Shown one piece after another: positions 8,603-34,272 of a DNA stretch of 34,272 nt. The notes below the pieces were generated by a model that was not told the DNA's origin, ran no database searches, and saw nothing but the letters and a program-made list of their open reading frames with translations. The position numbers and the translations under genes are program-made. Numbering within the stretch: position 1 is the stretch's first letter; the number at the start of each line of letters is the position of its first letter. Location of the stretch: NCBI GenBank assembly GCA_945889655.1, contig CAMDCH010000003.1:1-34272 (forward strand). Direction: 5' to 3'. The DNA is from a bacterium HR33 (lineage in GTDB: Bacteria; Gemmatimonadota; Gemmatimonadetes; Gemmatimonadales; GWC2-71-9).

Positions 8603-8610
8603 GGGTGGCT

Positions 8611-8620: not shown

Positions 8621-8626
8621 TACGGC

Positions 8627-8824
8627 ATGGAAACGGTTGATCGAGTGGGACTTTGTCGTACGTGCATTCACAGCCGGCAGGTCACGTCGGGGAAGGGATC
8701 CGTGTTCTGGCTATGTGAGCTCTCGAAGACAGACCCTCGTTTCCGGAAATACCCGCCACTACCGGTGCTTCGCTGCGAGGGATACGAGAGAGGGGAAGAG
8801 GGAAGCGGGAGGGAGGAAGGGTAA
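8627..8824 (+). CDS. Small 4-Cys protein (probable metal binder), the only credible plus-strand gene
   Basis: GLCRTC...FWLC...DPRFRKYPPLPVLRCEGY; fills the gap between yggX and DinB exactly. Confidence 0.75.
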   Translation: METVDRVGLCRTCIHSRQVTSGKGSVFWLCELSKTDPRFRKYPPLPVLRCEGYERGEEGSGREEG

Positions 8825-8869
8825 AGCGACTAGGTCTTTCGCTTCCCCCTTCCCGCGTCCCGCTTCCCC
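8791..8869. repeat. Inverted heptamer arrays (GGGAAGN / NCTTCCC) spanning two convergent gene ends
   Basis: Left ggggaag agggaag cgggagg gaggaag; right gcttccc ccttccc gcgtccc gcttccc. Confidence 0.75.
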
Positions 8870-9381
8870 GTCTTATCCAGCCACTTCAGCCTGTCGTGTA
8901 TCTGTCTTGCGTGGTGCCGGGCGTGGACGTAGTGAAATCGCACCCATTCCGGCATGGTGAGATCACCCATGACCGGGTGCGCCACGAAGATTTCGCTCTT
9001 CTGCTTGTCGTTCCACGACTCGCTGAGTCCGGCGAACCGCTCAATCCCCATCCGGTACTGTGCCGACACCAGCTCCGCGTCAGGTTCTTCGGGTGGTCGT
9101 GTGCTTTCGGGCGACTTGAGCTTGGGCGGGAACTTGCCCAGCATCAGCAGGAAATGGCGCAGTACCGCCTGGCCGGGGTTGGAGCGCCGTTTCATCCCGG
9201 TCTTGGCCGCGCGCTGTTCCAGGACGCCGGACGATGCATCCACGCCCGCGGCCAGGTGGGCAACGATCTGCGCGATGCTCCACTTGTCCTTCGGCGCCCG
9301 GTGCCAGTCCTCGGGCTTGAGCCCGTGCAGGGGACCGAACACCATCGGCTCTATCGCGTCGAGCTGCCGGCGAACCTTCAC
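8830..9381 (-). CDS. DinB-family (DinB_2) protein
   Basis: WSIAQIVAHL, HPVMGDLT..EWVRF..VHARHHARQI His triad; GTGA coupling with the upstream gene. Confidence 0.85.
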   Translation of the reverse strand: MKVRRQLDAIEPMVFGPLHGLKPEDWHRAPKDKWSIAQIVAHLAAGVDASSGVLEQRAAKTGMKRRSNPGQAVLRHFLLMLGKFPPKLKSPESTRPPEEPDAELVSAQYRMGIERFAGLSESWNDKQKSEIFVAHPVMGDLTMPEWVRFHYVHARHHARQIHDRLKWLDKTGKRDAGRGKRKT

Positions 9382-9638
9382 TGGTCCTCCGCCGCATAAA
9401 TCGACCTGACGATGCCGTTAAAAACCTCGGCCTTGGCGTTGAGCTTCCCGGTCACCGGGTCCTTCTTGATGTACCACTGGCACATCTCGGTCATCGCCAT
9501 TGCCTCGTCTTCGTTCAGGTCGACCGAGAACGCGCCGTCCGCGGCCTTGGCGCCGTCGACGACACGCTTGAGGTTGTCCGGAATTTCCGGCGTGGCCTTG
9601 AGAGCTTCGAGCATGGGTTGGGTGAAGCGGACGTTCAT
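9378..9638 (-). CDS. Hypothetical 86-aa protein
   Basis: Normal composition and GC-ending codons; coupled to DinB; preceded by an extended -10. Confidence 0.75.
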   Translation of the reverse strand: MNVRFTQPMLEALKATPEIPDNLKRVVDGAKAADGAFSVDLNEDEAMAMTEMCQWYIKKDPVTGKLNAKAEVFNGIVRSIYAAEDQ

Positions 9639-9645
9639 GACTGGA

Positions 9646-9654
9646 AGAATAACA
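9646..9654 (-). promoter_or_regulatory. Extended -10 (TGnTATTCT) 7 nt upstream of ATG 9638, probably leaderless
   Basis: Minus strand reads GCTGTTATTCTTCCAGTCATG; no SD. Confidence 0.55.
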
Positions 9655-9655
9655 G

Positions 9656-9720
9656 CGGGATTGGGGATTAGGGATCAGGGGTCCGCGTGCACAGACCGCT
9701 AATCCCCGATCCCTGACCCC
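9656..9720. repeat. Inverted heptamer arrays (RGGGATY / RATCCCY) downstream of thrB
   Basis: Left cgggatt ggggatt agggatc aggggtc; right cgctaat ccccgat ccctgac ccc. Confidence 0.85.
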
Positions 9721-9729
9721 GTCCACGCA

Positions 9730-10584
9730 CTACGCACCAGCGGTTACGCCACTCAACGCCACCCCCGGAGTGATCGCTTCCGCCGGGTTACCGGCAAGCA
9801 GGAGAGCCTCCGCCATCATGTCGGCGATCATCTTGACCTTCAACCGCGGCGCGACCGCAATCAGGCTCGAGCCGGCACCCGAGATGGTCACGCCGTAGGC
9901 TCCGGCCTTGATCCCGGCCTCCACTGCCGCGTCGAAACCCGGGATGAGGTGCTTGCGGTGCGGAACCGCAAGCTGGTCTTCCATGCCGAAGCTGATGAGA
10001 TCGCCGGCGCCCGTCACCAGGCCCTGGACCAGCGACGCCGACCTCGCCGCCTGGGCGATCGCCACCTCGCGGTCGACCTCGTGCGGAAGCATCTTGCGCG
10101 CGGTCTTGGTATCGATGCCCTTGGCCGGCACCGCGAGCGCCACGCCGAGGCTCTCGTCCAGCTCCAGCCGCACCGGCCGCTGGGCCGCCAGCATCAGCCC
10201 GCCGTATGCCGCTGGAGCCGCGTTGTCCGGATGCCCTTCGGCCTCGAATGCGACCTCGAAGGCGCGGTCGCGATTCAGCTTCCCGCCGGCCGCGAGCTGT
10301 AGCAGTGCCGCTCCCGCCACCAGCGCCGCGGCGGACGAACCGAGACCCTTGCCCACCGGGATTTCAGAATGGACCGCGAGGTGGTAGCGATTGCCGTTCA
10401 TCCCGCCCAGTCCCTTGAGGATCAGGTCCTTCGCGGGATCGAGACCGGCGACGGTCCCGGTGTACACGGGATGACCGGGGCCCTCGACGAGCGACGCTTC
10501 GAGCCAGAGATCGAGTGCCATGCCCAGGCAATCGAAACCGGCCCCGAGATTCGAGGTGGAGGCGGGAACGCGGACGGTGATCAT
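9730..10584 (-). CDS. thrB: Homoserine kinase
   Basis: VRVPASTSNLGAGFDCLG, IPVGKGLGSSAA (GHMP motif), EGHPDNAAPA, ISGAGSS. Confidence 0.95.
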   Translation of the reverse strand: MITVRVPASTSNLGAGFDCLGMALDLWLEASLVEGPGHPVYTGTVAGLDPAKDLILKGLGGMNGNRYHLAVHSEIPVGKGLGSSAAALVAGAALLQLAAGGKLNRDRAFEVAFEAEGHPDNAAPAAYGGLMLAAQRPVRLELDESLGVALAVPAKGIDTKTARKMLPHEVDREVAIAQAARSASLVQGLVTGAGDLISFGMEDQLAVPHRKHLIPGFDAAVEAGIKAGAYGVTISGAGSSLIAVAPRLKVKMIADMMAEALLLAGNPAEAITPGVALSGVTAGA

Positions 10585-10657
10585 TGGGTGCGGGGTTCGG
10601 GGTTTGGGGTGCGGGGAGGGCGGTCACCCGCACCTCGCACCCCGCACCCCGCACCCA
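10585..10657. repeat. Inverted heptamer arrays (GGGGTGC / GCACCCC) abutting the thrB start codon
   Basis: Left tgggtgc ggggttc ggggttt ggggtgc; right cccgcac ctcgcac cccgcac cccgcac cca. Confidence 0.88.
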
Positions 10658-10669
10658 TACGACCGAAAC

Positions 10670-13141
10670 TTACATCCTGAAGAGGTAACTCAGCTTGACG
10701 AAGAACCCGTCGGTCGTGCGATTGAGGTCGTTGAACCCGAACGCTTCGGGCTCGGTCAGGCTGGCGCCGTACCCGGCGAAGAACACCGTGCCGGGGTTGG
10801 GCTGGTAGGAGAGGAGCCAGTCCACCCGGAAGTTGTTCGACCTCGTGATGGACGCGCGCGTGTAGCGCGTGCCGGAGCGGATCAGGATCGGGAAATTGGT
10901 GCGTGAATCATCCCGCAGCGAGTCCCGGAACTGCGCGTCATACTGGCCCACGAACCGGAAGAAGATCGCGCGGGTCGCCTGGTATTCCACTCTGAGCCGC
11001 GGGATCTGCCGCCGCTTCACGGTGGACATGTCGGTCATGCGCTTGTAGAGCGAGAGCGGGTAGCGCGCGTTCACGCGGATCTTGGTCGTGGGCAGCCAGT
11101 CGAGCGTCACGGTCGGGAACGTCACGTACGCGACGGCCCACTCCTCGAAGTTTTCGTCCTGCCCGCCGATCACGTTGAACGTGAGGCGCCACGTCTTGAA
11201 CTGGGGCGTGGTGAGGCTCAGCGAATAGTCGTGGTTCGTGATCCGGTTCACGCCGGTGTACGGGATCGTGTCCTTGGCACCGCTGGGTAACGTGCGCTCG
11301 ATGTAGTAGTTGGCGTAGAGGTTCGGATCGTAGTGGAATGTCTCGAGGAAGTAGTTGGCATTGACACGCCACCCGCCGCGGAGGTTGAAGCTGTTGTTGA
11401 AATGCAGCTTCGGGTCGTTGGGCATGTGGGTGCTCTTGACGCCCCAGATGGAGTCGAGGCGGCCACCCTTGAAGAGGTGGTTGTATCCCCAGTTGCCGGA
11501 TACTGACCAGTTGAAGGTGTAGGACTCGATCGTCGCCTTGGGCTTGCCGAACCAGGTGAAGCGCTGGGAGTAGTTCATGCTCGCCTGGTTGGCCCGGTTG
11601 GCAAAGCCGCTTCGTGTACGGAACAGCGAGTCGATCCCGCTGAACGAGTAGCTCGTGCCGAAGTACTTGCCGGTGCGGTCGACATTGAAATTCCAGCGTC
11701 GGCCGCTGGTCTTGGCCGCTGTCCCCGTCTTGTCGAAGCTCTGGGAATAGTTCCCGCCCACAAACCAGATCTTGGAGAACACGTAGCGTGCGTCGCCGCC
11801 CATGACGCGGTTCCAGTTGCCCCCGTCGATCCGGTCCGTGTACACGATGCCGGCAGTGGACTGCGCGCCGAAGTCCCGCTTGAGACGAAGAATGTTGTAG
11901 ATCGGGTTGGGCCGGCCGTCTACGGTCGCGGAAACGCGGGCAATCGTCGAAAACTGTCTGTCATCCACCGCGGAAAGGAGCCCGATGCTGATGCCCGACT
12001 GCTTCCCGTTCAGCTTGAGCGCGGCGATCGGCTGGCCGATGGAGCGTGTGTAGATCAGGTTGTTGGGCGCATCGAACTGCTGCGTACCCTCGAGGAAGAA
12101 CGGACGCTTCTCGGGGAACGAGACCGCGGAGCGCGGGTCGAACTGGTTCTGCTGGACGTCTGCCTCGACCTGTGAGAAATCCGGGTTCATGGTGGCGTTC
12201 ATCGTCAGGTTGGGCGTGATGCCCCAGACCGCGTTGCCGCCAAACTCCGGCTTCCCATTCGTGTAGTTCCACCCGGCCGTGGCGGGCACCTGCGGGATAC
12301 CAACAACGCGCGAAGTGATGGTCGGGTTGAAGTCGAGCACCAGGCCGCGCTTGATATCGCTGACCCCGGTGAGCTTGCCGGACTGCACCAGCATCGATGC
12401 GTTGCCCTTTTTCAGCGGCGCCCAGCTCTGCTCGTGCTGGGAGTGCTGGACCTCGCGCAGGATGTTGATGCCCCAGTCCTGCACCTTGGTGCTCTGGTAG
12501 CGCAGGCTCTTGAACGGGATCCGGACCTCGACCTCGTAGCCGTAGTCCGTAACCCGGCCCTTGGACTGGTACTGGAAATCCTCATTGAGATCGTTGTGGC
12601 CGCCACCGGTGCCGCCCTCGCTCCGGGTCCCGTCCGACTGGCTGCCGAACGGGTTGACCATGAAGACCATCGCGCGGCGGCGGTCGTTGAACGTGTCCAG
12701 CAAGATCTGGATGTGATCGTCGGCGCTGATCTTGTCGCGGTCGGCCCGGTTCGCCTGCACCTTGCCGTGCGGCTCAAAGGCCCTGATGCCGAAATAGATC
12801 GCGTGGTCTTCGTACCACACGTACACGTCGGTGGAGTCTTCCGCCGGCAGGCCGTCCTGCGGCTGGTATTCGGAGAACCCGGTGAGCAGTGCGGCTTCGC
12901 GCCAGACCGCTTCATCCAGGATCCCGTCGATCTTTACGTCCTGGTTCAGCGAGATCCGCGGCATGTTGATGCCGAGCCGGTTCGACCGGCCGTGGTAGAT
13001 CCGGGAGGCCTCCGAAACCAGGGCGGGCGCGGTCGTGAGACTCGCCTCGCTGAGGACCACTTCGGATGAAGCCGGAGCCTGGGCCAAGGCGGTTCCCGCA
13101 AAGGCGAGTACCGCCAGCGCCGCCAACCTGATCTCGCGCAT
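10670..13141 (-). CDS. Outer-membrane protein: CBM9-like N-terminal domain plus DUF5916-type barrel region (paralog 1)
   Basis: Signal peptide; IDGILDEAVW, LLDTFND, EVRIPFKSLRY, NPDFSQVEAD, FPEKRPFFLEG, YTRSI; C-terminal FFVKLSYLF. Confidence 0.85.
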   Translation of the reverse strand: MREIRLAALAVLAFAGTALAQAPASSEVVLSEASLTTAPALVSEASRIYHGRSNRLGINMPRISLNQDVKIDGILDEAVWREAALLTGFSEYQPQDGLPAEDSTDVYVWYEDHAIYFGIRAFEPHGKVQANRADRDKISADDHIQILLDTFNDRRRAMVFMVNPFGSQSDGTRSEGGTGGGHNDLNEDFQYQSKGRVTDYGYEVEVRIPFKSLRYQSTKVQDWGINILREVQHSQHEQSWAPLKKGNASMLVQSGKLTGVSDIKRGLVLDFNPTITSRVVGIPQVPATAGWNYTNGKPEFGGNAVWGITPNLTMNATMNPDFSQVEADVQQNQFDPRSAVSFPEKRPFFLEGTQQFDAPNNLIYTRSIGQPIAALKLNGKQSGISIGLLSAVDDRQFSTIARVSATVDGRPNPIYNILRLKRDFGAQSTAGIVYTDRIDGGNWNRVMGGDARYVFSKIWFVGGNYSQSFDKTGTAAKTSGRRWNFNVDRTGKYFGTSYSFSGIDSLFRTRSGFANRANQASMNYSQRFTWFGKPKATIESYTFNWSVSGNWGYNHLFKGGRLDSIWGVKSTHMPNDPKLHFNNSFNLRGGWRVNANYFLETFHYDPNLYANYYIERTLPSGAKDTIPYTGVNRITNHDYSLSLTTPQFKTWRLTFNVIGGQDENFEEWAVAYVTFPTVTLDWLPTTKIRVNARYPLSLYKRMTDMSTVKRRQIPRLRVEYQATRAIFFRFVGQYDAQFRDSLRDDSRTNFPILIRSGTRYTRASITRSNNFRVDWLLSYQPNPGTVFFAGYGASLTEPEAFGFNDLNRTTDGFFVKLSYLFRM

Positions 13142-13160
13142 GAACGTGTCCTTGAGATTG

Positions 13161-13183
13161 AAAACGGGGTCGTGTGAGACCCC
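13161..13183 (-). terminator. Possible intrinsic terminator after the glucan synthase gene, or a 5'-UTR hairpin of paralog 1
   Basis: GGGGTC-tcacac-GACCCC-GTTTT on the minus strand; a TATATT -10-like box lies just upstream (13191-13186). Confidence 0.4.
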
Positions 13184-13260
13184 AGAATATAGGCAAGGGA
13201 ATGGCTTAGGGGCAAAGACTCGTGGACTACAAGGAGCCGGGCGGGGTGGGTGGGTGTCGG

Positions 13261-16200
13261 CTAGCGGCGCGCCAGTGGCCCCGCGACCTTCGCCATGTGG
13301 CCGATCGTGACGAGCACCCGGTGAGTCCGGCCGTCGTCCACCAGGGGAATGGCCGCGGCGTCAACCGCATGGCCATCCAGGTCGGCCGACGCGATGCCTC
13401 GGCAGCGATGCTCGGGATTGATGACGGTGATCTCGTAGCGCGTGCGGCCAAACCGCCATTTGATGGAATATCCGGACCACGCTCCCGGAATGCAGGGATC
13501 GAGCGCGAAGGTGTCTCCTGTCCGCCTGAGGCCGAGTATGCTCTCCAGCCCCGCGCGATACATCCAGCCGGCCGAACCCGTGTACCACGACCACCCGGCA
13601 CGCCCTGCGTGCGAGGGATGAGCGTAGACATCCCCGGCCATGACGTACGGCTCACCCTGGTAGCGCGCGACATCGGCGGCGGTCCGCGTGTGGTTGATCG
13701 GGTTGAGCAGGTGGAAGAGCTCGACCGCTTCATCACCGTTGCCGAGACGGGCGACCGCCATGACCGTCCACACCGCGGCGTGAGTGTACTGGCCGCCGTT
13801 CTCTCGCAGGCCCGGTGGATAGCCCTTGATGTAACCGGGATCCTGCGCGGTGCGGTCAAACGGGGGTGCCAGCACCAGCACCACTCCCGACCCGCGCGAG
13901 ACCAGGTGGCTGCGCACGGCATCCATCGCGCGCTCCGCGCGGGCCAGCGGCGCCACGCCGGACAGCACCGCCCACGACTGGGCGATCGAATCGATCTTGC
14001 ACTCGTCGTTCTGGGCCGAGCCCAGCGGGAGCCCGTCGTCGTAGTAACCGCGACGATACCAGTCGCCATCCCAGGATCGCTCGAGCACGCCGGCCAGCCG
14101 GCCGGCTTCGTTCGCGTACCGGGCGGCGCGCGGAGTGTCGCGGCCCGTGCATAGTGGCTGGAAGCGCCGCAGCACGTCGTGCAGGAACCATCCGAGCCAG
14201 ACGCTTTCGCCCCGCCCCTCGCGCCCGACGCGGTTCATTCCGTCGTTCCAGTCGCCGCTGCCCATCAACGGCAGTCCGTGAGCCCCGGCGGTGATGCCCC
14301 TGTCGATGGCTCGCGCGCAATGCTCGAAGAGCGACGCCGACACGAGCGACGGGCGCGCGTCGCCGTACGTCTCGTGCTCATGTTCGGCCAGGAGCGGGCC
14401 CTCGAGGAACGGGACAACCTCGTCGAGGATGGCAGTATCACCCGTGGTCTCCACGTAGTGCGCGACCGCATACGGCAGCCAGAGCAGGTCATCCGAGCAT
14501 CGCGTGCGCGTACCTCGTCCCCCCGGCGGATGCCACCAGTGCTGGACGTCCCCTTCGACGAACTGGCGCGATGCGGCGCGGAGGACGTGCTCGCGAAAGA
14601 GGTCCGGCCGGGCGAACGACAGCGCCATGACATCCTGGAGCTGGTCCCGGAAGCCAAACGCGCCGCCGGGCTGAAAGAACCCGCTCCTCGCCCACAGCCG
14701 GCAGCCCAGGGTCTGGTAGAGCAGCCAGTGGTTGAGGAGCAGGTCGAACGAATCGTCGGGCGTCCGCACCTGGATCGTGTCCAGCGTTTCCGTCCACGCG
14801 GCCTCCACCGATGCGAGTGCCGTGGCTGCGGCCGCGACGCTCCCGTGCCGCTGGATCAGCGCGCGGGTGTGCTGCCGGTCCCGCCCCTGGCCCAGCAGGA
14901 AGACAACCTCGTGGGTCTGTCCGGGCGCGAGCGTCACGCTGACCTGGAGCGCCGCGCACGGGTCCAGCCCGGCGCCGAACTGGCCGGACAGTCCCGGGCG
15001 CTGCAGTGCCACCGGCCGCGCCAGCGATCCGTTGCGGCCCACGAATGCAAGCCGGTCCCCCGTGGCGGACAGGGGTGTGTCGCTCGCATGGGAAAACGCC
15101 ACGGCGCCGGGGCAGCTCTCGTTGAACGGATTCCGCGCCAGGATCGCACCGGTCGCTTCATCCTGTTCGGTCACGACCTGAAGGTGCTGGCCGAGCCGGG
15201 GCGGACCCATGTGCCACTCGTTGTAAGCAAAAAGGCTCAGTCGCCGTGTGCGGCCCGTGCGGTTCGTGAGCGCAAGGTGCGAGAATTTCACAGGGTCCGC
15301 GCTGTCGACGAACACGGCGAGCTCCTGCGCGATCCCGTGGGACAAGTGGACAAAGCGCGTCACCCCGGCGCCATGCCGGGTCACGAACCGGCCGCCGTCA
15401 GATGACCGCGGAATCGGGCCCGGCGTCGGACACCAGGTGGAGCCGTCGTCCTCGTCTCGCAGGAACAGTGCTTCCCCCGTCGAGTCGGTCACCGGATCGT
15501 TGGCGAACGGCGTCAGCCGGTTTTCCCGGCTATTTCCGGTCCAGGTGTACGCGGAACCCGAGGCAGACACGACCGTGCCGACGACGGGATTCGCGATGAC
15601 GTTGACCCAGGGCAGTGGTGTTTCCCGGTTGCCATCGAGCACCACCACGTATTCGCGGCCATCGGCGGCGAATCCTCCGGTCTCGTTGGGAAACGCGAGG
15701 GTGGGAATGGCTGCGGCCTCGTCGCCGGGCTCACTCGCGCGAAGCGGCCGCGGGCGCGGTGGCGGTTGCTGTTCCTTGCGCCACTCCGGTTCCAGGTAGG
15801 GCCAGTCGAGCTGGCTCGAGAGCCCGCCCCGTTCGCCCGGCAGGATGGCGCGCGCCACGCTCGCCAGCAGCGTCCGCTCGGCTTCCGTCATGCGGTCGCC
15901 TCGCAGCAGGAAAACGCCGCCAGGGCGATGCTTCCACGCTCCCCACGGCCCGGTGTCCAGCAGGGCGGTGAGCTGGACGTGCATCTCGTCCAGGTAACTG
16001 GCCGGATGCTCGTTCAGGATCACGACATCTGCGGAGAGTCCCTTGAGTCGCCAGTACTCCTGTGCCTGGAGCACCTGGCGCACGAGCGGGATGTTGTCGT
16101 CATCTACGACACGCACCAGGAGTATGGGAAGATCACCGGAGATGCCGTGACCCCAGAGTCCTGGCTGTCCCAGCACGTTGCGCTCGAGGATCTCCGGTCC

Positions 16201-21732: not shown

Positions 21733-21757
21733 CTCACTTCTCACTTCTCACTTCACT
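21733..21757. repeat. Heptamer tandem (CTCACTT)x3 overlapping the stop codon of paralog 2
   Basis: ctcactt ctcactt ctcactt cact; single arm only. Confidence 0.75.
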
Positions 21758-24105: not shown

Positions 24106-24110
24106 GACCA

Positions 24111-24116
24111 AAACTA
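24111..24116 (-). promoter_or_regulatory. -10-like box (TAGTTT) 5 nt upstream of ATG 24105, possibly leaderless
   Basis: Minus strand reads GCCATAGTTTTGGTCATG; no SD. Confidence 0.4.
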
Positions 24117-24140
24117 TGGCTGCGGCGAAGGAGAAAACAG

Positions 24141-24233
24141 AGGGACTGGGCACCAGGGATCAGGGATTAGGGCCAAGCCTCCAGCCCCCGGTCCCTAATC
24201 CCCAATCCCTGATCCCTAGTCCCTAGTCCCTAG
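24141..24233. repeat. Inverted heptamer arrays (AGGGAYY / RRTCCCT), same family as 9656-9720
   Basis: Left agggact gggcacc agggatc agggatt aggg; right ccctaat ccccaat ccctgat ccctagt ccctagt ccctagt, ending at the permease stop. Confidence 0.9.
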
Positions 24234-25448: not shown

Positions 25449-27131
25449 TTAGCGTCCCCGCCCGCCGCCGGCGCCACCACCCATGCCGGGCACGGCCGTC
25501 ATCCGGTTCTGCATCTGCTGCTGTTGCTGTTGCGCCTGGATCAGCGACGCGCTCGGCAGGACCATGATGCTGTCCTTTTCCGTCAGGCCACTCACGATCT
25601 CGGAGTAATCGAGGTCGGTGAGGCCGGTGCGCACGTTGGTCGCGTGGGGCTGGCCGTTCCGGTTCACGAAGACGATGTAGTTGCCGCCGAACGCGAGACC
25701 CGCCTGGTTCTGGCGCGCCTGCGCACGCGCGAGCCGGCCGGTGCGATCCTGGCCGTCACCGCCTTGGCCACCACCGCCCTGGAATCCGCCACCCGGGGCG
25801 CCGCCGCCGAACCCGGCATTACCGCCGGCACCGGCGCCGCCGGCGAATTGCCGGTTGCCGCCACCGCCGGGCGCGCCACGGCCGGGACCACCACCCATGC
25901 CTTCGCCGCCGGCCTGCCGGTAGCGCTGCATGAGCTGCCGGTCTTCTTCACTCAGCGACATGAAGAACGAACGGTCTCCGCCCTGCATCTTGGCCATGAA
26001 GCCCTCGATCTTCTTCGCGTCCGCGGCCGAGAAGCCCGCGGGAGCCGCAACCTTGCGACCGTCCGCCAGCGCGATCATCACGCCACCCTTGGCTGCCGCC
26101 GTGTCGGTCTTTGCGGCACCGCCCATCGATGCCCGGCCACCAGCCGAGTCGGGCGTCGCGGACGTTGCCGCCGCGAGCTGCTTCTGGACGTCTTCCATGG
26201 TCAGGCCGAGCACGCCCGCCGCCGACGCCACGTCACGCTGCGTGCGCAGGGCCGAGTTCTGGAGGGCCAGCACGGCTCGGCGCTCGCCCACGGTGATCGC
26301 GATCTCCGCGTTCATGCCGGGGCGAAGCAGGTGATCCGGGTTGGGGAGGCGCACCATCACCGGGAACATCGTGACCTGCTGCTGCACGATGGACTGCGGC
26401 TCGATCTTGAGCACACGGCCCGTGAACGGCCGGTTGGGATACGCGTCCACCGTGATCGTCACCGCCATGTCGGCGGAGAGCTTGCCGATATCGGTTTCGT
26501 CCACCAGCGCGCGGATCTGCACGGAATCCAGGTTGGCCATCTTCATCAGGACCTGGCCGCCAGAGACGCCGCCGGTGGCCGACTGGATCACCGCGCCCAG
26601 CCCGACGGGACGGGTTAGCACGATGCCGTCCTTGGGCGCCCGCACGTCGGTGTCGGCGAACGAGATGCGCGCGTTCTCCAGGTCCGTCTGCGCCCGGACC
26701 ACCGAGGCCTTGGTGTTAGCCGCCTGGAGCCTGGCGTTGTCGTACTCCGTGTCCGTGATCGACTTGCTGACATGGAGATCCTCGGCCCGCTTGAGCTGCG
26801 ACAGGGCGTTGGCCTGCTGGGCCTGGGCAACCTCGAGGTTGGCCTTGGCCTGTTCCAGGGCGTTCCGCGGCGTGCGCGGGTCCACCTGGAGCAGCAGTTG
26901 GCCCTTCTTCACTTCCTGGCCCGTCTGCACGTGGAGCGCGATGATCTCGCCCGACGCCTTGGACTTGATCTCGACCGAGTCCACCGGCTGCACGGTGCCG
27001 GTGGCGTTGACTGAGACGATGATGTCACGCCGCAGGACGGGGATGGTCTCGAAGACCGGGGCGGCCACCTTGTCCCTGTTGCATCCGGCGAGGGTGGCGG
27101 TCGCGACGAACAACCCGAGTAAACGCTTCAT
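25449..27131 (-). CDS. MacA-like periplasmic adaptor (lipoprotein) with long Gly-rich insertion
   Basis: Lipobox LAGC; [11 protein letters not shown], lipoyl-like half-motifs, [30 protein letters not shown]. Confidence 0.92.
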
Positions 27132-27874
27132 GCGGCTTCCTTGGTCAGGATATCGCGCTCGATCAGGCCGTCCTTCAGATGAATCTGACGGTCCGCAAAC
27201 GCCGCGATATCACGTTCATGAGTGATGAGGATGACGGTCTGCCCCTGGGAGTGCAGGCCGGAGAAGACATTCATGATGTCATGGCTGGTAGCCGAGTCCA
27301 GGTTACCCGTGGGCTCGTCCGCCAGGATGATGCTTGGATCGTTCACCAGTGCCCGCGCGATGGCGACGCGCTGGCGCTGCCCGCCCGAGAGCTCGTTGGG
27401 GCGGTGATGCATGCGGTCGCCCAGTCCCACCTTCTCCAGCGACTCCTTGGCGCGTTCACGCCGTTCCTTTGATCCCACGCCGGCATAGATCAGCGGCAGC
27501 TCCACGTTGTGGAGTGACGTGGCGCGGGGCAGAAGATTGAAAGTCTGGAAGACGAACCCGATTTCCTTGTTCCGGATCCGCGCCAGCTCGTCGTCGGACA
27601 GCTCGCTCACCTTCTGGCTGTTGAGCCAGTACTCGCCGCCGGTCGGCGTATCGAGGCAGCCGAGCAGGTTCATGAGCGTCGACTTGCCCGAGCCCGACGG
27701 TCCCATGATCGCGGTGAACTCGTTGCGCCGGATCTGGATGTCCACCCCGCGCAGTGCGCGCACGGTTTCCGTGCCGAGGATGTAGTCCCGCGCGAGCTTG
27801 TACGTCAGGATGATGACGTCCGGAAGCGGCGTGTCGCCGGTCTGGAACTGCTGGTGCTGGATGCGGGCGGTCAC
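27128..27874 (-). CDS. MacB/LolD-type ABC ATP-binding protein
   Basis: [39 protein letters not shown]. Confidence 0.96.
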
Positions 27875-29196
27875 AGGGCTCGCCCGAGAATGGCTTCGAT
27901 CTGCGCCCGCGCCACCTGGTGATCCACGCGTGCCTGCACGGCATCAACCTCGGACTGGTCGAGCTGCTGTTGCGCCTGGAGGACCTCGACGATGGTCGCC
28001 GCGCCGAGACGATAGCGTTCGCTCTGCACCCGCAGGGCCTCGCTCGCCGCCTCGCGGCTTGCGGAGGCGATGCCAATCCGGGTCTCCGTTGCCTGCAGCT
28101 GGGACAAGTACAGGGTTACCTGGGCGTTGATGTTGCGGCGCGCGTCGTCGGCGGTCGCGGCAGCCGCGTCACGTGCGGCGTTGGCGTTCCACAGCGTCTG
28201 CTCGCGGCGGAGCCCGTTGAACAGCTGGAACGACACGCTGAGACTGAGGTTCCAGGTCGGGTTCATTGCGCCATAGTCGAGCGCGCTGCCGAAGCTGGCT
28301 GCCGACGCATTGCGCGAGTTGCTGTAGCTCGCGCCGAGGGTCGGGAAGTAGGCCACGCGTGCCTGGCTGACGCTGGCTTCCTGCGTGCGAAGTGAGGCAG
28401 CGGCCTGGAGGATAGTCGGCGCCCGGGACATGGCCTCTGCGCGGAGACCGGTCGTGTCCACCGCGCTGACCGCAAACACGCTCGAATCACCGACCGCCTT
28501 GACGGGCTTGTCGAAGCCGATCAGGCGCGCGAGCTGAGCTTCGGCGTTGGTACGCGCCGTCTGCGCGTTCAGCACCTGGAGCTTGGCCTGGCCCACCGCG
28601 ACGGTTGCCGTCAGCGTGTCGGACCGGACGGCGCTCCCGGCGGCCAGCTTGGAGCGCGCGATCTTCAGGTTCTCTTCCGCGCGCTGCTGGCTGGTGCGCT
28701 GCACCCGCTCGAGCTCGGCGGCAGCAAGGGCGTTGTAGAACTGCTGCTTGGTCTGGAGCGCGACGCTGAAGCGCTGGGTCACCACGCCGGCCTCGGCGCT
28801 CGCCATGGCGGCATTCGCCGTCTTCGCCTGGAAGATGCGTGCACCGGCGTCGAAAATCGTGAGGCTCGAGTTGAACCCGAACGACCCGGAGTATGGCGTC
28901 AGGACCTGGACGCTTTGACCTGTGACGGTATTGAACCGGTTGGAGGGACTCTTGCCGACACCGGTGCTCACGCTGAGGCTCGGCAGCCAGCTGGCCAGCG
29001 CCACCCTCTTCAGCGAAGTGGCGTTGGTCAGCGACGCCTGCGCCTGCACGATCGACGGATGGTCCCGCAGCGCGAGGCTGATCGCCTCGCTCAGCGTCAC
29101 CGTCGGAACCTGTACCGGGGCCGCAGCCTGCTGGGCCCGGAGGGTCCCCGCGGCCGTCATGGTCAATCCAAGAACTGCCAGAGTCTTAACGCGCAC
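27871..29196 (-). CDS. TolC-family outer-membrane factor
   Basis: GTG at 29196 with AGGGAG RBS; signal peptide; two OEP repeats ([39 protein letters not shown]). Confidence 0.9.
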
Positions 29197-29662
29197 GATC
29201 TTTCTCCCTTTCCTTTTCACGTTTCCGGGCGACGCTGTCCGCGCGTGCACTCCAGCGCTCGAACGCCGCCTTCTGGTCGTTGTTGAGAACCCGCATGATG
29301 TCGTCACGGACCAGCCCGCGAAGGCTGTCGAACTTCGGCCGGGAATCCTCCCGCATCCGGTTCCACACGCCTTCCATGGCCGGCTCCCACCGCTTCAGGA
29401 TTGCCTGCACGGTGTCCTTCTGCACGGGAGTCAGGCTCAGCTCCCGCTCCAGCGTGGACACGAACCCGCGGCCGCCCCGGTCATTGGGGCCCCCACGGTC
29501 GTTCGGTCCGCCGCGTCCTCCCCGGTCGGAACGCTGGTCCTGGCGCGGCCGCCCGATATCGTCGCCGAACCCCCAGCGCGAGGTCGCCCGCCCGGTCACC
29601 CCTCCTACCGCGAAGGTGGCGATCAGCAGTGCCGCCGCCCCCAGTTGTTTTCCTGTCACCAT
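29186..29662 (-). CDS. Membrane-anchored Spy/CpxP-like periplasmic helical protein
   Basis: N-terminal TM (TFAVGGVTG), ELSLTPVQ and VLNNDQ LTxxQ-like motifs, RGG-rich linker. Start is uncertain. Confidence 0.65.
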   Translation of the reverse strand: MVTGKQLGAAALLIATFAVGGVTGRATSRWGFGDDIGRPRQDQRSDRGGRGGPNDRGGPNDRGGRGFVSTLERELSLTPVQKDTVQAILKRWEPAMEGVWNRMREDSRPKFDSLRGLVRDDIMRVLNNDQKAAFERWSARADSVARKREKEREKDRAR

Positions 29663-29687
29663 TGAGACACTCGATCTTCCCGTTTCG

Positions 29688-30047
29688 TCAGTCGTTGACC
29701 CGCTCTTCACCCATCACCATCTCGACCCGGAAGTCCGGCACCACCTCTGATGCCAGCAGGGTCTGCGCGGACAGCGATTCCGCCGCTACCGCTTCTTCTA
29801 CCGTGGCTGCCATGTCCAACGCCGGCTGACCCGACAGCCACACGGTCCCCGCCACCAGCATCACGACCGCCGCCGCGAGGCCCGGCCGGGCCCATTCGCC
29901 CAGGATCCCGAACGGGGTTTCCATGACGATCTGTGCCGGCACCCGTTCCATCACCCGCTTGGCGAACGCGGCATCGTCGGGCGCGGAAAGCAGATCGCGC
30001 AATGCGCTTCCCAGATCCTCGTCAGGCCGATGATCGAATTCGTTCAT
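29688..30047 (-). CDS. Probable single-pass anti-sigma factor
   Basis: ATGA overlap with the sigma stop, AAGGAG RBS; FAKRVMER helix followed by one TM helix. Confidence 0.7.
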   Translation of the reverse strand: MNEFDHRPDEDLGSALRDLLSAPDDAAFAKRVMERVPAQIVMETPFGILGEWARPGLAAAVVMLVAGTVWLSGQPALDMAATVEEAVAAESLSAQTLLASEVVPDFRVEMVMGEERVND

Positions 30048-30586
30048 GTTTTCTCCTTGTGCCACACCGCGAGCGTTTCACGCAGCGCCCGCCGGGCATG
30101 GAAGACGTCCGACCGCACGGTGCCTTCCGAAACATTTACGACCTGCGCTATCTCCCGATGCGAATACCCTTCCACGTCGAACAGCGTCACCGCGATACGC
30201 TGCCGGGTCGGCAGCAGGGCCAGCGCCTTGTCCAGCGCCGCCCGCAACGCGCTCCGGTCCGCTTCCTGGTCCGGGCCCGCCGCGCGGGTCATCGCGTCCG
30301 CCGGGATCTGCTCCGTGGACCTCACCTTCAGTCGCCGCCGCCGGTCCGACGCGGCATTCGCCACGATACGCAACAGCCACGGGCCGAAGGGTCGGGTCGG
30401 GTCGTACCGCTCGAGGGCTCTCAATGCCGCGAGAAATCCGTCCTGCGCCGCATCGTCGGCATCGTCCGCATTTCCCAGAATGGAACGCGCCAGCCGCCGT
30501 GCGGTGCCCGCATACCGCTCGACCAGGGTCCCGAAGGCCTCCCGGTCGCCCGCCCCCGCCCTGGCGGCGAGCTCGGCGTCCTCCAT
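30044..30586 (-). CDS. ECF sigma-70 factor
   Basis: GDREAFGTLVERY, DADDAAQDGF, FGPWLLRIVAN, EGYSHREIA, SEGTVRSDVFHARRALR. ATG 30586 preferred over 30634. Confidence 0.93.
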   Translation of the reverse strand: MEDAELAARAGAGDREAFGTLVERYAGTARRLARSILGNADDADDAAQDGFLAALRALERYDPTRPFGPWLLRIVANAASDRRRRLKVRSTEQIPADAMTRAAGPDQEADRSALRAALDKALALLPTRQRIAVTLFDVEGYSHREIAQVVNVSEGTVRSDVFHARRALRETLAVWHKEKT

Positions 30587-30593
30587 ATCTCCC

Positions 30594-30620
30594 TTACGCA
30601 CTACCGGTTCCAGACGTTGC
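30594..30620 (-). promoter_or_regulatory. Candidate autoregulatory ECF promoter GCAAC-N17-CGTAA
   Basis: Minus strand reads GCAAC gtctggaaccggtagtg CGTAA gggagat ATG, fitting the general ECF AAC-N16/17-CGT consensus. Confidence 0.6.
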
Positions 30621-30626
30621 CCCCTG

Positions 30627-32051
30627 TCACTCATCCGCGGTCAGGCGGCGGCGCTGGTAGAAGTGCCAGGCGGCGGTGCCTCCCAGCCAGAAACAGGCGA
30701 ACGCAAACAGTGTCGCCATGATCCTCGGCAGGGCCAGGAACAGGACCCCGCTCCCCACCAGCGCAAAGATCGTCGCCCCGGCGATCGAACGACGCGCGCC
30801 CGCCGCCACCTGCCGCAGGTTCACCACCGCCCGCCGCGACCGCTCCTGCGGCCACGGCTCGTGATCGACTACCTCGGGATCAGGCGCCGTCTGGCGCGCC
30901 ACCGGCGGGAGGCGTTCGCCCAGCGGCCCGCGCGCCCAGCGCGGGCGGCGCAGCACCACCTCCACCGATCGCGAGAGATCGATCCGGAACTGCTGGATCG
31001 CGTCGCCGGTGACCTGTTCGTCTTCCACCAGCAGGTCCAGCTCGTAGTTCGACCGCAGGCTGGACGAGTTGATGTTGCTGGACCCCACCTTGAAGAACCG
31101 CGAATCCACGATCACCGTCTTCGCGTGGAGCATCGGGCCGCGCCACTCCCAGATCCGCACCCCCGCCTCCAGCAGCTCGCGATACCCGACGCGTGACAGC
31201 GCCGCCATCACGGGGATGTCCGTGCGCCCCGGCACCAGCAATCGGACATCGAGGCCGTCCCGCGCGGCCGCGATCAGCGACGCCAGCATCGGCTGCGGTG
31301 GCAGCAGGTACGCATCGGTGATCCACATCCGCTCGGCCGCGCCCGCCGCCATCAGCTGCAGCGTCCGGTACACCCGCAGGCTCGCCGGGATGCCCTCGAT
31401 CACGCGGACCGTGGCATCCCCAGCCTCCTCCGCGAGCGAGACCGGGCCTGGCTCGGGCAGCGGAGCGCCCGCCAGCCCCCACGTGTGGGCGAACGAGAGG
31501 TCCAGGACCGCCACCGCCGGACCCCGCACCAGCACCGCCGTGTCGCGCCAGGGGCGGCGCTTCCGCGCCGGATCACCCTGCCACTCGTCGCCGATGCAGA
31601 GGCCACCCACGGTGGCTACCGAACCGTCCGCCGAGACGTACTTGCGGTGATTGCGCTCGATGGATTCGAGCGGCCGGAACAGGTTCACCGGGTTGAAGGT
31701 CCTGACCTCCACACCGCCCGCCCGCAGCTTCTGCCAGTACGACGACGGGGTGCCTCGGCAGCCGAAATAGTCGTACAGGACCCGCACCGCCACGCCCCGC
31801 GTCGCCGCCGCGATGAGCAGGTCCGCAAACCGGCGGCCGGTCTGGTCGTCGCTGATGATGTAGTTCTCGAAATGCACCCACCGCCGGGCCGCGCCGATGA
31901 TCTCGTACATCGCGGCGAACGCCGCGGGCCCGTCCGTGAGATGCCCGATCGCGTTGCCCGGAATGGCCCGGCCACCCGCCGCGCGATCAAGCGCGCGCTC
32001 CATCGCATGGCGCTCGAGATGGCGCGTGCGCCCGGTGACCGGAACGCTCAT
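30627..32051 (-). CDS. cls: Cardiolipin synthase / phospholipase D family with C-terminal TM hairpin
   Basis: Two HKD motifs (HRKYVSAD, HAKTVIVD), WRDT, GSSN. ATG 32051 overlaps the HD-gene TGA. Confidence 0.88.
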   Translation of the reverse strand: MSVPVTGRTRHLERHAMERALDRAAGGRAIPGNAIGHLTDGPAAFAAMYEIIGAARRWVHFENYIISDDQTGRRFADLLIAAATRGVAVRVLYDYFGCRGTPSSYWQKLRAGGVEVRTFNPVNLFRPLESIERNHRKYVSADGSVATVGGLCIGDEWQGDPARKRRPWRDTAVLVRGPAVAVLDLSFAHTWGLAGAPLPEPGPVSLAEEAGDATVRVIEGIPASLRVYRTLQLMAAGAAERMWITDAYLLPPQPMLASLIAAARDGLDVRLLVPGRTDIPVMAALSRVGYRELLEAGVRIWEWRGPMLHAKTVIVDSRFFKVGSSNINSSSLRSNYELDLLVEDEQVTGDAIQQFRIDLSRSVEVVLRRPRWARGPLGERLPPVARQTAPDPEVVDHEPWPQERSRRAVVNLRQVAAGARRSIAGATIFALVGSGVLFLALPRIMATLFAFACFWLGGTAAWHFYQRRRLTADE

Positions 32052-32623
32052 GCCGCGCCGAGGCCCAGCGTCTGCTCGATGGGCCGGAGGGCCTCCAGCA
32101 CGAAGAGGATGTGTTCGTCCAGCGGCACACCCAGCTCCGCGGTCCCCTGGTGCACGTCGTCCCGGTTCACGCCCCGGGCAAACGCCTTGTCCTTGAGCTT
32201 CTTCTTCACGCTCGATACTTCCAGATCCTTCAGGGACTTGGAGGGTCGCACCAGCGCGCACGCCACCAGGAAGCCGCACAGCTCGTCAACCGCGAAGAGC
32301 GTCTTCGCCATCTGGGTTTCGCGCGGGACCCCGGTGTAGGACGCGTGACCGAGAATGGCCTGGAGCATGGGCTCCGGAACTCCCCGTTCCCGCAAAACCT
32401 TCACGCCCGCCGACGGATGTTCCTCGGTGGCCGAACGCGCGTCGTTGGGGAAGCGCTCGTAGTCAAAGTCGTGCATGAGCCCCACGATGCCCCACGACTC
32501 CTCGTCCTCCCCGTGCTTCCGGGCATACGCGCGCATCGCCCCCTCCACTGCGTACATGTGCTTCCGCAGCGCTTCGGAGGGCGTGTACTCCTGCATCAGG
32601 GCGAGCGCTTCGGTGCGATTCAT
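32048..32623 (-). CDS. HD-domain (HDIG-type) phosphohydrolase
   Basis: GGAGG RBS; LRKHMYAVE, GLMHDFDYE, EEHP, AILGHA, LFAVDELCG, KDKAFARGVNRDD. Confidence 0.9.
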   Translation of the reverse strand: MNRTEALALMQEYTPSEALRKHMYAVEGAMRAYARKHGEDEESWGIVGLMHDFDYERFPNDARSATEEHPSAGVKVLRERGVPEPMLQAILGHASYTGVPRETQMAKTLFAVDELCGFLVACALVRPSKSLKDLEVSSVKKKLKDKAFARGVNRDDVHQGTAELGVPLDEHILFVLEALRPIEQTLGLGAA

Positions 32624-32633
32624 GAACCTCCAA

Positions 32634-32711
32634 CGGTGCGTGGTTCGCGGTGCGCGGTTCGCGGGGGTGCATGAGGAGTCCCGCGCACCTCGCACCGCAC
32701 ACCGCGCACCG
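32634..32711. repeat. Inverted heptamer arrays (CGGTGCG/CGGTTCG) between asnB and the HD gene
   Basis: Left cggtgcg tggttcg cggtgcg cggttcg; right cgcacct cgcaccg cacaccg cgcaccg. Confidence 0.88.
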
Positions 32712-34271
32712 TCAACTCCACTTCTCCATCCAAACCTGGAGCACCACCAGGGCCCACAATCCGCGGGCAACCCCGAAGTCTCCGGCGCGGTGTCTCCCCA
32801 GAAGTTCACTGGCTGCGTCGGGGTTGAGTAGCCACTGCCGCGAAAGACCGGCGGGATCGAGCAGGGCGTCCACCCTCCCACGGAGAGGTCCATTCACCAG
32901 GTGCGAGATGGGCACCGAGAGCCCGCGCTTCCGCCGGTGCACGATATCGCGGGGGAGAAGCGCGGATGCGGCCTGCTTCAGGATCCACTTGGTGGTGAGC
33001 CCGCGGACCTTGAACCGTGTCGGAAGGCCGAACGCAAACTCCGTCACGGCGCCGTCGAGATACGGCGCGCGCGCCTCGAGCGACGCCAGCATCGTGGCCC
33101 GGTCGATCTTGGGGAGCAGACGGTCGCGGAGGTAGGTGCGGTAGTCGAAGTGCATGGCTGCGGTGACGACGTCCGGTGCGCGGTGTGCGGTGCGCGGTGC
33201 GCGTGAACTGCTCGGGAGTTGGTCCCCCCGCGAACCGCGAACCGCGAACCGCGCACCGTCCAGTCCTGATCCCATCCACGCGACGTGTCGTGCGTCCCAC
33301 GGCTTCCCAGCATGTTCCGCGAGAGATCGAACCAGGTAACTCAGCGGCACGGCGTTCCCCGAGTTCGGCAACAACCGCGCGACCAGCGGCAGCCATCCAC
33401 TCACCCAGGGCGCCAGGCGATGGCCGATGTACGCGGGGTAGCCGCCAAAGAGCTCGTCCGCGCCTTCACCCGCCAACACCACGCCCACGTGCTCGCGCGC
33501 CGAGCGCGCCAGGAGGTACGTGGGCAGGATGGCGGGATCGGCAATCGGCTCGGCGACCGCCGAACCCACCGTCTCGAATGCCTCCGCCAGCTCGGTATCG
33601 CCCGCGAGCACCTCGTGATGCTTCGTGCCGATCAGCCGGGCAACCCTCTGCGCGGACGCTCCTTCGTCATAGGACGCGGAAGTGAAGCGAACGGTGAAGG
33701 TCCGACGCACGCCCTCGCGGGCAGCGAGCGCCGCGATCAGCGAGGAATCCAGGCCGCCGCTCAGGAAAACGCCCACCGGGACGTCCGCGGTGAGCTGCCG
33801 GCGGACGGAGGCGGTGAGCAGTGAGAGCAGACGGTCAGACGGTCTGACGGTCAGACGGTCGGGATCCGGGACCGTCAGTTGGGTGCGTTGCTCGGTGGTC
33901 GTCTGGCCATTCGACCATAACGCCGTCGAACCCGCTGGCAACTTCCTCACCGCGGCAAACATCGTCCGCGGCTCGCGGACGTATCCGAACGCGAGGTAGT
34001 CATCGACTGCGGCGGGATCCAGCTCTCGGCTCACATCCGGGTGCGACAGCAGCGCCTGGACCTCGGAGGCAAACAGGAGCTCGTGCGCGGTCTGTGCGTA
34101 GAAGAGCGGTTTCTCGCCCGCGCGGTCGCGGGCGAGGATCAGCTGTCTGCGGGCATCATCCCAGATGGCGAGCGCGAACATTCCCTCGATGCGCGACAGG
34201 CCCTTCGCTCCGTCCTCACGGTAGAGCGGAAGCACCACCTCCGCGTCCGAGCGTGAGCGAAACGGATACGA
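32712..34271 (-). CDS. asnB: Asparagine synthase (glutamine-hydrolysing) family amidotransferase, 5' part outside window
   Basis: Frame is open to the window edge (FRSRSDAEVVL); GMFALAIWD, ARDRAGEKPLFY, LSGGLDSS, GEGADELFGGY, SLEARAPYLD. Confidence 0.93.
   Translation of the reverse strand, partial: SYPFRSRSDAEVVLPLYREDGAKGLSRIEGMFALAIWDDARRQLILARDRAGEKPLFYAQTAHELLFASEVQALLSHPDVSRELDPAAVDDYLAFGYVREPRTMFAAVRKLPAGSTALWSNGQTTTEQRTQLTVPDPDRLTVRPSDRLLSLLTASVRRQLTADVPVGVFLSGGLDSSLIAALAAREGVRRTFTVRFTSASYDEGASAQRVARLIGTKHHEVLAGDTELAEAFETVGSAVAEPIADPAILPTYLLARSAREHVGVVLAGEGADELFGGYPAYIGHRLAPWVSGWLPLVARLLPNSGNAVPLSYLVRSLAEHAGKPWDARHVAWMGSGLDGARFAVRGSRGDQLPSSSRAPRTAHRAPDVVTAAMHFDYRTYLRDRLLPKIDRATMLASLEARAPYLDGAVTEFAFGLPTRFKVRGLTTKWILKQAASALLPRDIVHRRKRGLSVPISHLVNGPLRGRVDALLDPAGLSRQWLLNPDAASELLGRHRAGDFGVARGLWALVVLQVWMEKWS
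33174..33258. repeat. Inverted heptamer arrays inside the asnB coding sequence
   Basis: Left cggtgcg cggtgtg cggtgcg cggtgcg; right cgaaccg cgaaccg cgaaccg cgcaccg; encodes GARFAVRGSRGDQLPSSSRAPRTAHRAP. Confidence 0.9.
33828..33878. repeat. Octamer tandem (CWGACGGT)x4 plus one inverted unit inside asnB
   Basis: cagacggt cagacggt ctgacggt cagacggt ... accgtcag; encodes LTVPDPDRLTVRPSDRL in the inter-domain linker. Confidence 0.85.
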
Positions 34272-34272
34272 C

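Follow-up and report, generated by a model that had tools for sequence, protein, structure and literature searches.

The 34,272-nucleotide stretch of DNA analysed here (the window; positions 1 to 34,272 of contig CAMDCH010000003.1 of bacterium HR33, phylum Gemmatimonadota, assembly GCA_945889655.1) contains eight loci at which units of seven or eight nucleotides are repeated in tandem, and these loci prove to be genuine members of a class of small hairpin-forming repeat elements found throughout the genome. The elements have a common anatomy and a nearly uniform polarity, are abundant, lie in gaps between genes or in frame within them, are gained, lost and replaced within the genus, exist in copies that enclose a gene, and are not tied to the RAYT-like genes of the genome. 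We consider the chances about even that they are small insertion-type repeat elements, that is, gene-less miniatures of a cassette of the S23p/intervening sequence (IVS) type that are tolerated as RNase III-type RNA duplexes. The source genome (G000, in which the window is contig C3) has an assembly of 2.65 Mb in 313 contigs with 66% G+C and is 85.5% complete. G001 and G002 are genomes of the same genus, and the closest protein relatives of the window proteins are found in metagenome-assembled genomes of Gemmatimonadota.

Anatomy and genome-wide abundance

Tandem Repeats Finder identified arrays of period 7 or 8 at all eight loci, which an earlier note, made from the sequence of the window alone, had listed as inverted tandem arrays. 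Six of them consist of two tandem 7-mer arrays in inverted orientation, whose arms (20-33 nt) were 83-88% complementary in an inverted-repeat search, whereas the locus at 21733 is a single array and the locus at 33828 is a direct array accompanied by one inverted unit. For the six paired loci, the z-scores of the RNA fold range from -4.2 to -6.9, a level that none of 200 shuffles reached. None of the eight loci carries a gene between its arms, and Rfam 15 gave no match in the window at gathering score. The loci are:

8779..8868, hairpin, unit GGGAAGN; arms 8800-8829 and 8839-8868 (30 nt, 83%); fold z -4.5; Tandem Repeats Finder array 8842-8869
9657..9713, hairpin, unit RGGGAYY; arms 9657-9676 and 9694-9713 (20 nt, 85%); fold z -4.2; array 9657-9680
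10585..10657, hairpin, unit GGGTGCG; arms 10585-10615 and 10627-10657 (31 nt, 87%); fold z -6.9; arrays 10586-10616 and 10627-10656
21733..21754, single array, CTCACTT x3.1, without inverted partner; member of the largest unit family of the genome; array 21733-21754
24141..24231, hairpin, unit GGGAYYA; arms 24141-24172 and 24200-24231 (32 nt, 88%); fold z -6.9; arrays 24154-24172 and 24192-24232
32633..32712, hairpin, unit CGGTKCG; arms 32633-32665 and 32680-32712 (33 nt, 85%); fold z -6.2; arrays 32634-32664 and 32681-32711
33174..33258, hairpin, unit CGGTGCG/CGCGAAC; arms 33174-33203 and 33229-33258 (30 nt, 87%); fold z -6.0; arrays 33174-33203 and 33228-33258
33828..33878, direct octamer array CWGACGGT x4.1 plus one inverted unit; weak fold (z -2.7, 2 of 200 shuffles as good); array 33828-33860

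Contigs from two public DNA runs span five of these loci with 0-1 differences; they may come from the source samples of the assembly and are therefore not counted as independent support. These contigs yielded neither unit-number variants nor indels, and a search for RNA runs that cover window 24101-34100 found none.

The arrays are far more frequent in G000 than expected by chance, a comparison that the earlier note had proposed as a test. The genome contains 321 arrays of at least 3.8 copies (217 of period 7 and 104 of period 8), and a Markov-5 simulated genome of equal size contained one of each period. When overlapping Tandem Repeats Finder rows were merged and the flanks of each array were searched for its reverse complement, a set of 139 hairpins (99 of period 7 and 40 of period 8, with a median length of 82 nt) and 202 single arrays was obtained from the 2.65 Mb, at a density of about 130 arrays per Mb. 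Elements are about twice as frequent at contig ends as expected (22/626 versus 11.5).

The size of the arms varies little. Between 3.5 and 4.5 copies are present in 101 of 164 period-7 arms and 54 of 73 period-8 arms (155/237 in total), with a median of 4.4 and 4.0 copies, respectively, and 31-32 nt per arm. Arms typically pair over 30 nt (median) with a mean complementarity of 88%, around a loop of 22 nt (median). A by-eye impression of fixed four-unit arms was not upheld in general (identity in the order of unit variants exceeds that of shuffles in 2 of 10 families only). In 135 of the 139 hairpins the G-rich arm comes first (5′), with two reversed and two neutral cases. Because the element is an inverted repeat, this G-first polarity is true on both strands and independent of the direction of transcription. 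All seven long-range inverted pairs formed by arrays otherwise classed as single, which are 127-2966 nt apart, are also G-first.

This constant architecture is built from 51 unit types among the 139 hairpins. The proposal that units differ by locus holds in this sense, although some are shared within the window: CGGTKCG recurs at 32634 and 33174, and RGGGAYY (of the GGGNATC type) at 9656 and 24141. The further idea that the sequence is free had to be abandoned, as the units are grouped in multi-copy families. The top three are AAGTGAG with 24 hairpins, AAGAAGT with 10 and ACCGAGC with 8, none of them with G-runs, and an inner core is common to 5 of the 34 members of the largest family pair and to none of the 105 other hairpins.

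A structure-specific RNA function, with arm mismatches that allow G-U pairing, had also been suggested. Among 506 arm mismatches, 228 (45%) are transversions and 278 are transitions. In co-directional gene contexts, G-U-compatible mismatches are found 46 times in the sense and 37 times in the antisense orientation, which is no sense-strand bias, and the fold of the sense strand is better than that of the antisense strand in 21 cases and poorer in 18, which is no stability bias. There is thus no sign of selection on the RNA of one strand, and the suggestion is not supported.

Gene context and turnover within the genus

All window genes lie on the minus strand, and the elements occupy the short gaps between them or are placed in frame, abutting start and stop codons as originally described. 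The right arm of the hairpin at 8779-8868 falls inside the final codons of a DinB-family open reading frame (ORF; 8830-9381, minus strand; ORF and Pfam analysis). The hairpin at 9657-9713 occupies a 91-nt gap between the start of ORF 9378-9638 (minus) and the stop of the GHMP-kinase ORF 9730-10584 (minus), whose start codon (10582-10584) adjoins the first base of the hairpin at 10585-10657; the other end of this hairpin is 12 nt from the stop of a DUF5916 gene (10670). The single array at 21733-21754 covers codon 21748-21750, the stop of a DUF5916/CBM9 gene (21748-24153, minus), with its purine-rich strand as the sense strand, and the hairpin at 24141-24231 lies between the 5′ end of the same gene and the stop of a MacB-like gene (24234-25448, minus). 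The hairpin at 32633-32712 is located between the ATG of an HD-domain gene (32621-32623, minus) and the asnB stop codon (32712-32714), within which it ends. Two elements are in frame in asnB. The hairpin at 33174-33258 is in a variable loop, with the ORF open across it, the Asn_synthase domain on both sides and no conserved columns at this loop among 7 homologues, and the array at 33828-33878 is in the linker between the GATase and Asn_synthase domains.

The window contains two paralogous DUF5916/CBM9 genes (10670-13141 and 21748-24153, both minus), and a run of further paralogues is present on G001 contig C199. A CTCACTT-type array is found at the end of both the copy at 21748 and a G001 paralogue.

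Gene context across the genome was assessed with gene calls from a crude GC3-based ORF filter, and the resulting figures are approximate. The calls cover 81% of the genome, and 75 of the 139 hairpins lie wholly outside them. Elements occupy 30 of 278 convergent gaps, 47 of 1252 co-directional gaps and 13 of 268 divergent gaps; by flank composition, the comparison is 3 divergent versus 20 convergent. Near stop codons, the G-rich strand of single arrays is the sense strand in 39 versus 13 cases, and near start codons, for which the calls are crude, there is no strand bias (21 versus 18). Sixteen hairpins are within ORFs, and in 11 of these the sequence on either side has coding composition. All ten ORF-internal hairpins that were checked against Pfam lie within genuine genes, where they separate domains or adjoin one (Lhr, the HhH region of DnaE, Mfd, the linkers of MutL and NadE, a GT4 enzyme, a CCG/Fer4 protein, DUF72, PMT and a TPR protein), and the elements add ∼25-40 residues to protein linkers. 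A GGGAAGC hairpin with arms 127 nt apart (C43:10911-11095) encloses the apparent 5′ end, with a GTG start, of a minus-strand gene.

The comparison with orthologous loci that the earlier note had called for showed that corresponding positions carry other units or no element. In the 310 kb of G002 that were sampled, the arrays are mainly of period 8, and the dominant units are other than those of G000. The gap between the GHMP-kinase and DUF5916 genes (10585-10657) holds a 9-mer hairpin of a different unit in G002, the site at 24141-24231 a degenerate octamer array of a different unit, and the asnB linker (the site at 33828) a heptamer array, again of a different unit. The gap between the HD-domain gene and asnB (32633-32712) has no element in G002, in which the two genes overlap. 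In G001, the same gap contains a 4+4-unit hairpin of AGGTGYC with spacing similar to that in G000, and all units in both arms differ alike (CGGTKCG versus AGGTGYC), which is a concerted change.

Thirty-six arrays or elements of G002 were followed in the reverse direction, and 16 of them have both orthologous flanks in G000. Six of these 16 sites are occupied in G000 with different units, four are cleanly empty (gap of -7 to +29 nt) and show no seed sequence, four contain different sequence of about the same length, and the remaining two are coding 9-mers. At the co-occupied sites, each genome has elements of its own abundant families. The class extends beyond the genus. In 40 kb from each of ten family- or order-level relatives, at least one period-7/8 array of at least 3.8 copies was present in six genomes and of at least 2.8 copies in nine, and inverted neighbouring arrays were found in at least five, with a control expectation of ∼0.03 arrays per 40 kb.

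Two further observations concern the sites in G001 and G002. In G002 (C5:128812-128843), a GGCGGATG x4 array lies between the stop of an ABC-ATPase gene and the start of an HlyD-family gene, which in the window overlap (27119-27131, ATGA). Each GGCGGATG unit contains ATG in a frame that is open into a signal peptide, and the array may supply the start codon. In G001, contig C201 shares synteny with window 27272-33173 and terminates (positions 1-45) in a long poly-G run exactly at the position of the in-frame asnB hairpin, probably an assembly artefact at the repeat.

Copies that enclose a gene and possible routes of mobility

Whether some copies enclose a small gene had been raised as a check, and the answer is positive. 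Four PF05635 (S23p) matches were found in G000, two of which are weak and have no arrays. One gene (C76:8540-8842, 98 bits) has a TAGGCGGG x4.4 array on one side and the inverse array, with 3.6 copies, on the other; TAGGCGGG is a unit of the largest octamer family. A second copy, on C110, is cut by the contig end and stands beside an array of the largest heptamer family. PF05635 genes are present in 26 of 31 genomes (the relatives and G000), with up to 13 per genome. Thirty PF05635 loci were inspected, and a flanking inverted repeat was found in 26 of them; in 21, inverted 7-9-mer arrays are located on both sides, each locus with its own unit. Unpublished data account for one of the 30 loci (L170) and one of the 31 genomes (G016). 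The 21 array-flanked cassettes comprise 14 G-first, 3 C-first and 4 neutral cases, and no conserved motif was seen by eye in their 5′ spacer. The closest solved relative of the C76 protein is a Xanthomonas campestris protein (PDB 2GSC, E 6e-21), which was deposited with 5 chains. The most similar S23p pair (85% identity, same genus) has an identical flanking unit.

At the site next to lepA where G000 carries the S23p cassette (C76:8403-8914), G002 has a ∼370-aa gene (C27:147384-148533; L147:2870-4019) whose translation, read by eye, suggests the transcription termination factor Rho. In G001 the contig is interrupted at the array of this site, and neither congener thus offers an empty site.

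The genome also contains three to four Y1_Tnp (PF01797) genes, and these are flanked by different, classical repetitive extragenic palindromic (REP) sequences, with two motifs present in 17 and 5 copies genome-wide. No hairpin element is within 4 kb of any Y1_Tnp gene and no array is next to one, in agreement with the earlier expectation that no single REP consensus with a cognate transposase would account for the loci. Three small Y1_Tnp genes of 143-154 aa (C19:1445-1780, C19:13335-13679 and C36:139-486; L119-L121) and their palindromes look like a separate RAYT/REP system in G000. A reverse transcriptase (PF00078) was not found in the 85.5% complete genome, so a route based on reverse transcription receives no support. 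One of the long-range pairs consists of inverted GGTAAGT/ACTCACC arrays 1238 nt apart around a 286-aa ORF (C64:7290-8584). From a by-eye reading of its translation, this ORF may be an IS3-type integrase-core transposase, with an insertion sequence perhaps inserted into a hairpin element.

Origin of the elements and relation to known repeats

The arm size, polarity, unit families, presence or absence at orthologous sites, in-frame copies filtered to linkers and filled copies fit insertion-type elements better than hairpins that evolved individually for the host. The families, the shared inner core and the presence or absence between congeners rather favour copy-paste or exchange between loci, and the concerted orthologous difference together with the unconserved order of units indicates that arrays also undergo remodelling, in place or through exchange. 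The preference of the earlier note for a generative mechanism over copy-paste mobility thus captures part of the dynamics, namely the concerted change and the unordered units, but not the families and the presence or absence of copies.

In the insertion-type reading, the full form of the element would be a small S23p/PF05635 gene, encoding a four-helix bundle, between like arms, as in ORF-bearing 23S rRNA intervening sequences. Once transcribed, an element would be expected to fold into an RNA duplex of ∼30 bp. By analogy with the IVS precedent, RNase III would cut the stem, so that insertions between the genes of an operon would do no harm and transcripts would be punctuated as a side effect. 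In-frame copies would survive in tolerant linkers only, and unit sequences would turn over within and between loci through slippage and exchange. The G-first polarity may come from selection, for example if a C-rich arm that emerged first formed an exposed Rho-loading site, or from the mechanism of formation. With little confidence, we also propose that the S23p protein is an oligomer that would read the 7-8-nt units with one protomer per unit, set the length of the ∼four-unit arm, and mobilise or maintain its own cassette together with the miniatures.

Several results weigh against the insertion-type reading. No transposase or other mobilising enzyme related to the hairpin elements was found in the genome. 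The arms behave as terminal inverted repeats and both filled and empty sites exist, but target-site duplications are unreadable because the flanks of congeners are only ∼70-80% identical. Identity in the order of unit variants within arms was above all 30 unit-order shuffles in only two of ten families, and its failure to exceed them in the other eight does not match the prediction of simple copy-paste of whole arms. Co-occupancy at 6 of 14 informative orthologous sites is compatible with in-place turnover too. The two array-associated S23p copies in G000 are insufficient alone to account for 51 unit types, and the relation between S23p identity and flanking-unit similarity among the 21 cassettes is weak and non-significant (Spearman -0.18, p 0.08, from non-independent pairs). 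Finally, no large IVS was present in the four 23S rRNA genes assembled among 13 relatives searched (2949-2983 nt or cut, for a model of 2925), and the 23S gene was not found in G000, G001 or G002.

The alternative that retains most weight, although we regard it as unlikely, is generation in place, by which local replication slippage would build and homogenise an array, template switching within the hairpin would add or correct the second arm, and the hairpin would be kept for RNA processing, stabilisation or termination in the host. The 4+4-unit hairpins with concerted unit change in the HD/asnB gap of G000 and G001 agree with this model, as does the co-occupancy of 6/14 informative sites with different units, which exceeds the 4-11% gap occupancy genome-wide. 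It would also accommodate the unconserved order of unit variants in 8/10 families and the lower occupancy of divergent than of convergent gaps (13/268 and 30/278, or 3 and 20 by flank composition). However, free slippage would not give a tight copy number of ∼4, cleanly empty orthologous sites show no seed sequence, and neither the multi-copy families nor the subfamily with a common inner core is explained. Further points against a retained RNA hairpin are the lack of a G-U or stability bias toward the sense strand and the copies inside DnaE, MutL and Mfd, which have no obvious RNA role, and selection on hairpins alone does not predict a polarity of 135 to 2.

Also doubtful, and to a slightly greater degree, is the possibility that the arrays are binding sites, each ∼four-unit arm being a DNA or single-stranded RNA platform for an oligomer, either an S23p-type four-helix-bundle protein or a global regulator as proposed for the paired sites of Geobacter. 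The number of units and the arm length are constant whatever the unit, S23p genes are embedded between such arms, the most similar S23p proteins share a unit, and the five chains of PDB 2GSC are in line with an oligomer. Paired tandem-repeat sites of Geobacter are annotated as putative global-regulator sites (PMC2700814). Against this stand the 51 unit types for 2-4 S23p genes in the 85.5% complete G000 and the weak tracking of unit similarity by S23p identity, and copies in coding regions are hard to square with a regulatory site.

We consider it very improbable that the elements are intrinsic, possibly bidirectional, terminators with stems extended by the repeats. Convergent gaps are the most occupied (30/278), stop-proximal single arrays are G-rich on the sense strand, and several copies of the largest family have an inner GC-rich hairpin followed by a T-run (4/34 by a simple pattern). 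However, none of the eight window loci matches the intrinsic-terminator pattern, which argues against the termination role considered in the earlier note; eight sites with this pattern occur in 8500-24500, none of them at an element, and none occurs in 32000-34272. Most window copies are within a gene or between close genes on the same strand, and an ordinary terminator-like hairpin separate from the elements (13184-13165) follows the large GH94 gene of the window. This gene (13261-21579, minus) encodes 2772 aa and combines two stretches of GH94 supersandwich with GH94 catalytic and glucoamylase-like domains; in size and domains it resembles a cyclic beta-1,2-glucan synthase.

There is even less to recommend G-quadruplex repeats of the kind proposed for the GGGNATC arrays of Xanthomonas and Nostoc: the units at 9657 and 24141 are of this type, ∼four units are preferred and many units have G-runs, but the largest families (AAGTGAG, AAGAAGT and ACCGAGC) have none, so that no general explanation results, and the complementary arm would compete with quadruplex folding. 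Ordinary REPs or REPINs moved by RAYT, or classical miniature inverted-repeat transposable elements of an insertion sequence family, are largely refuted, since the three to four Y1_Tnp genes carry a different palindrome with no hairpin element within 4 kb and the 51 units have no single consensus, even though the C64 array pair encloses an ORF read by eye as transposase-like.

Tandem heptamer repeats have, to our knowledge, been known in bacteria since ∼1990 without a mechanism. Mazel et al. reportedly described in 1990 the short tandemly repeated repetitive (STRR) heptanucleotides of heterocystous cyanobacteria. Like the elements found here, STRRs are tandem heptamers with several unit types per genome and mostly intergenic positions, but they are described as direct arrays and belong to another phylum with another base composition.

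STRR repeats of Calothrix are mentioned by Rehm 2015 (PMC4692102), whose report on Xanthomonas, together with that of Aklujkar 2009 on Geobacter, provides the closest published cases; elements similar to those of G000 have been known from both genera. In Xanthomonas campestris and X. axonopodis, GGGAATC heptamer arrays prefer four units and form 70-75 convergent inverted pairs per genome, mostly between aligned ORFs and within ∼50 bp of start or stop codons, with under-representation between divergent ORFs; the repeat length varies between species and the type, single or pair, is kept (PMC4692102). The elements of G000 resemble them in having about four tandem heptamers, convergent G-rich pairs (which is equivalent to G-first polarity), similar gap positions and GGGNATC units at 9657 and 24141. 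In contrast to the one unit consensus per genome of Xanthomonas, G000 has 51 unit types, periods of both 7 and 8 and many units without G-tracts, and its in-frame coding and gene-carrying copies have no counterpart described for Xanthomonas in the available part of PMC4692102.

Geobacter metallireducens has paired sites of three TCTCCGTS[Y] units (class 2) and of five MTYCTGA heptamers (class 3), as well as 49 elements of four GGACCGG heptamers, some inside genes, and these repeats were annotated as putative regulator-binding sites or RNA elements (PMC2700814). Several unit classes per genome, pairs on opposite strands at variable distance and four to five units per site are common to both organisms; Geobacter has far fewer unit classes. 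In Coxiella burnetii, the IVS described by Warrier 2016 is an S23p ORF in a ∼28-bp terminal stem that RNase III cuts mid-stem, and it was called selfish (PMC4990558). A minority of the copies found here likewise have a PF05635 gene between long terminal inverted repeats, and the median stem is 30 bp compared with 28 bp. Unlike 23S rRNA intervening sequences, which are found in helix 25 or 45, the copies here are outside rRNA and mostly without an ORF.

REP/REPIN sequences with RAYT transposases (Bertels and Rainey 2011, PMC3116915) are like the elements in being short, abundant and hairpin-forming and in lying in intergenic gaps at gene ends, but REPs share one consensus and flank a cognate RAYT, and in G000 the RAYT-like genes carry another repeat. 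The TAACTGA direct heptamers of Beggiatoaceae, cyanobacteria and Bacteroidetes (MacGregor 2015, PMC4679880) also form 2-6 tandem copies that abut start codons and are absent from the same gaps of related species; they differ in consisting of one unit in direct arrays (1 inverted set of 170) that are oriented toward the downstream gene. In the limited literature searched, we found no description of such arrays in Gemmatimonadota and no report that links PF05635 to heptamer arrays. What is new here is the arm size, the G-first polarity, the lack of a G-U bias, the positions relative to genes, the turnover between congeners, the full form with S23p, and the different REP at RAYT-like genes.

In practical terms, the elements lengthen or fuse ORF calls, extend protein linkers and concentrate at contig ends. 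A Gemmatimonadota genome thus presents this class of repeats at high density, with strict arm size and polarity and with rapid turnover between congeners. In-frame copies are found in essential genes (DnaE, MutL, Mfd and NadE), and the gene-carrying copies name a candidate protein partner. If the S23p protein were indeed this partner, STRR-like repeats, the paired arrays of Xanthomonas and Geobacter, and rRNA intervening sequences would form one new mobile class without a known transposase.

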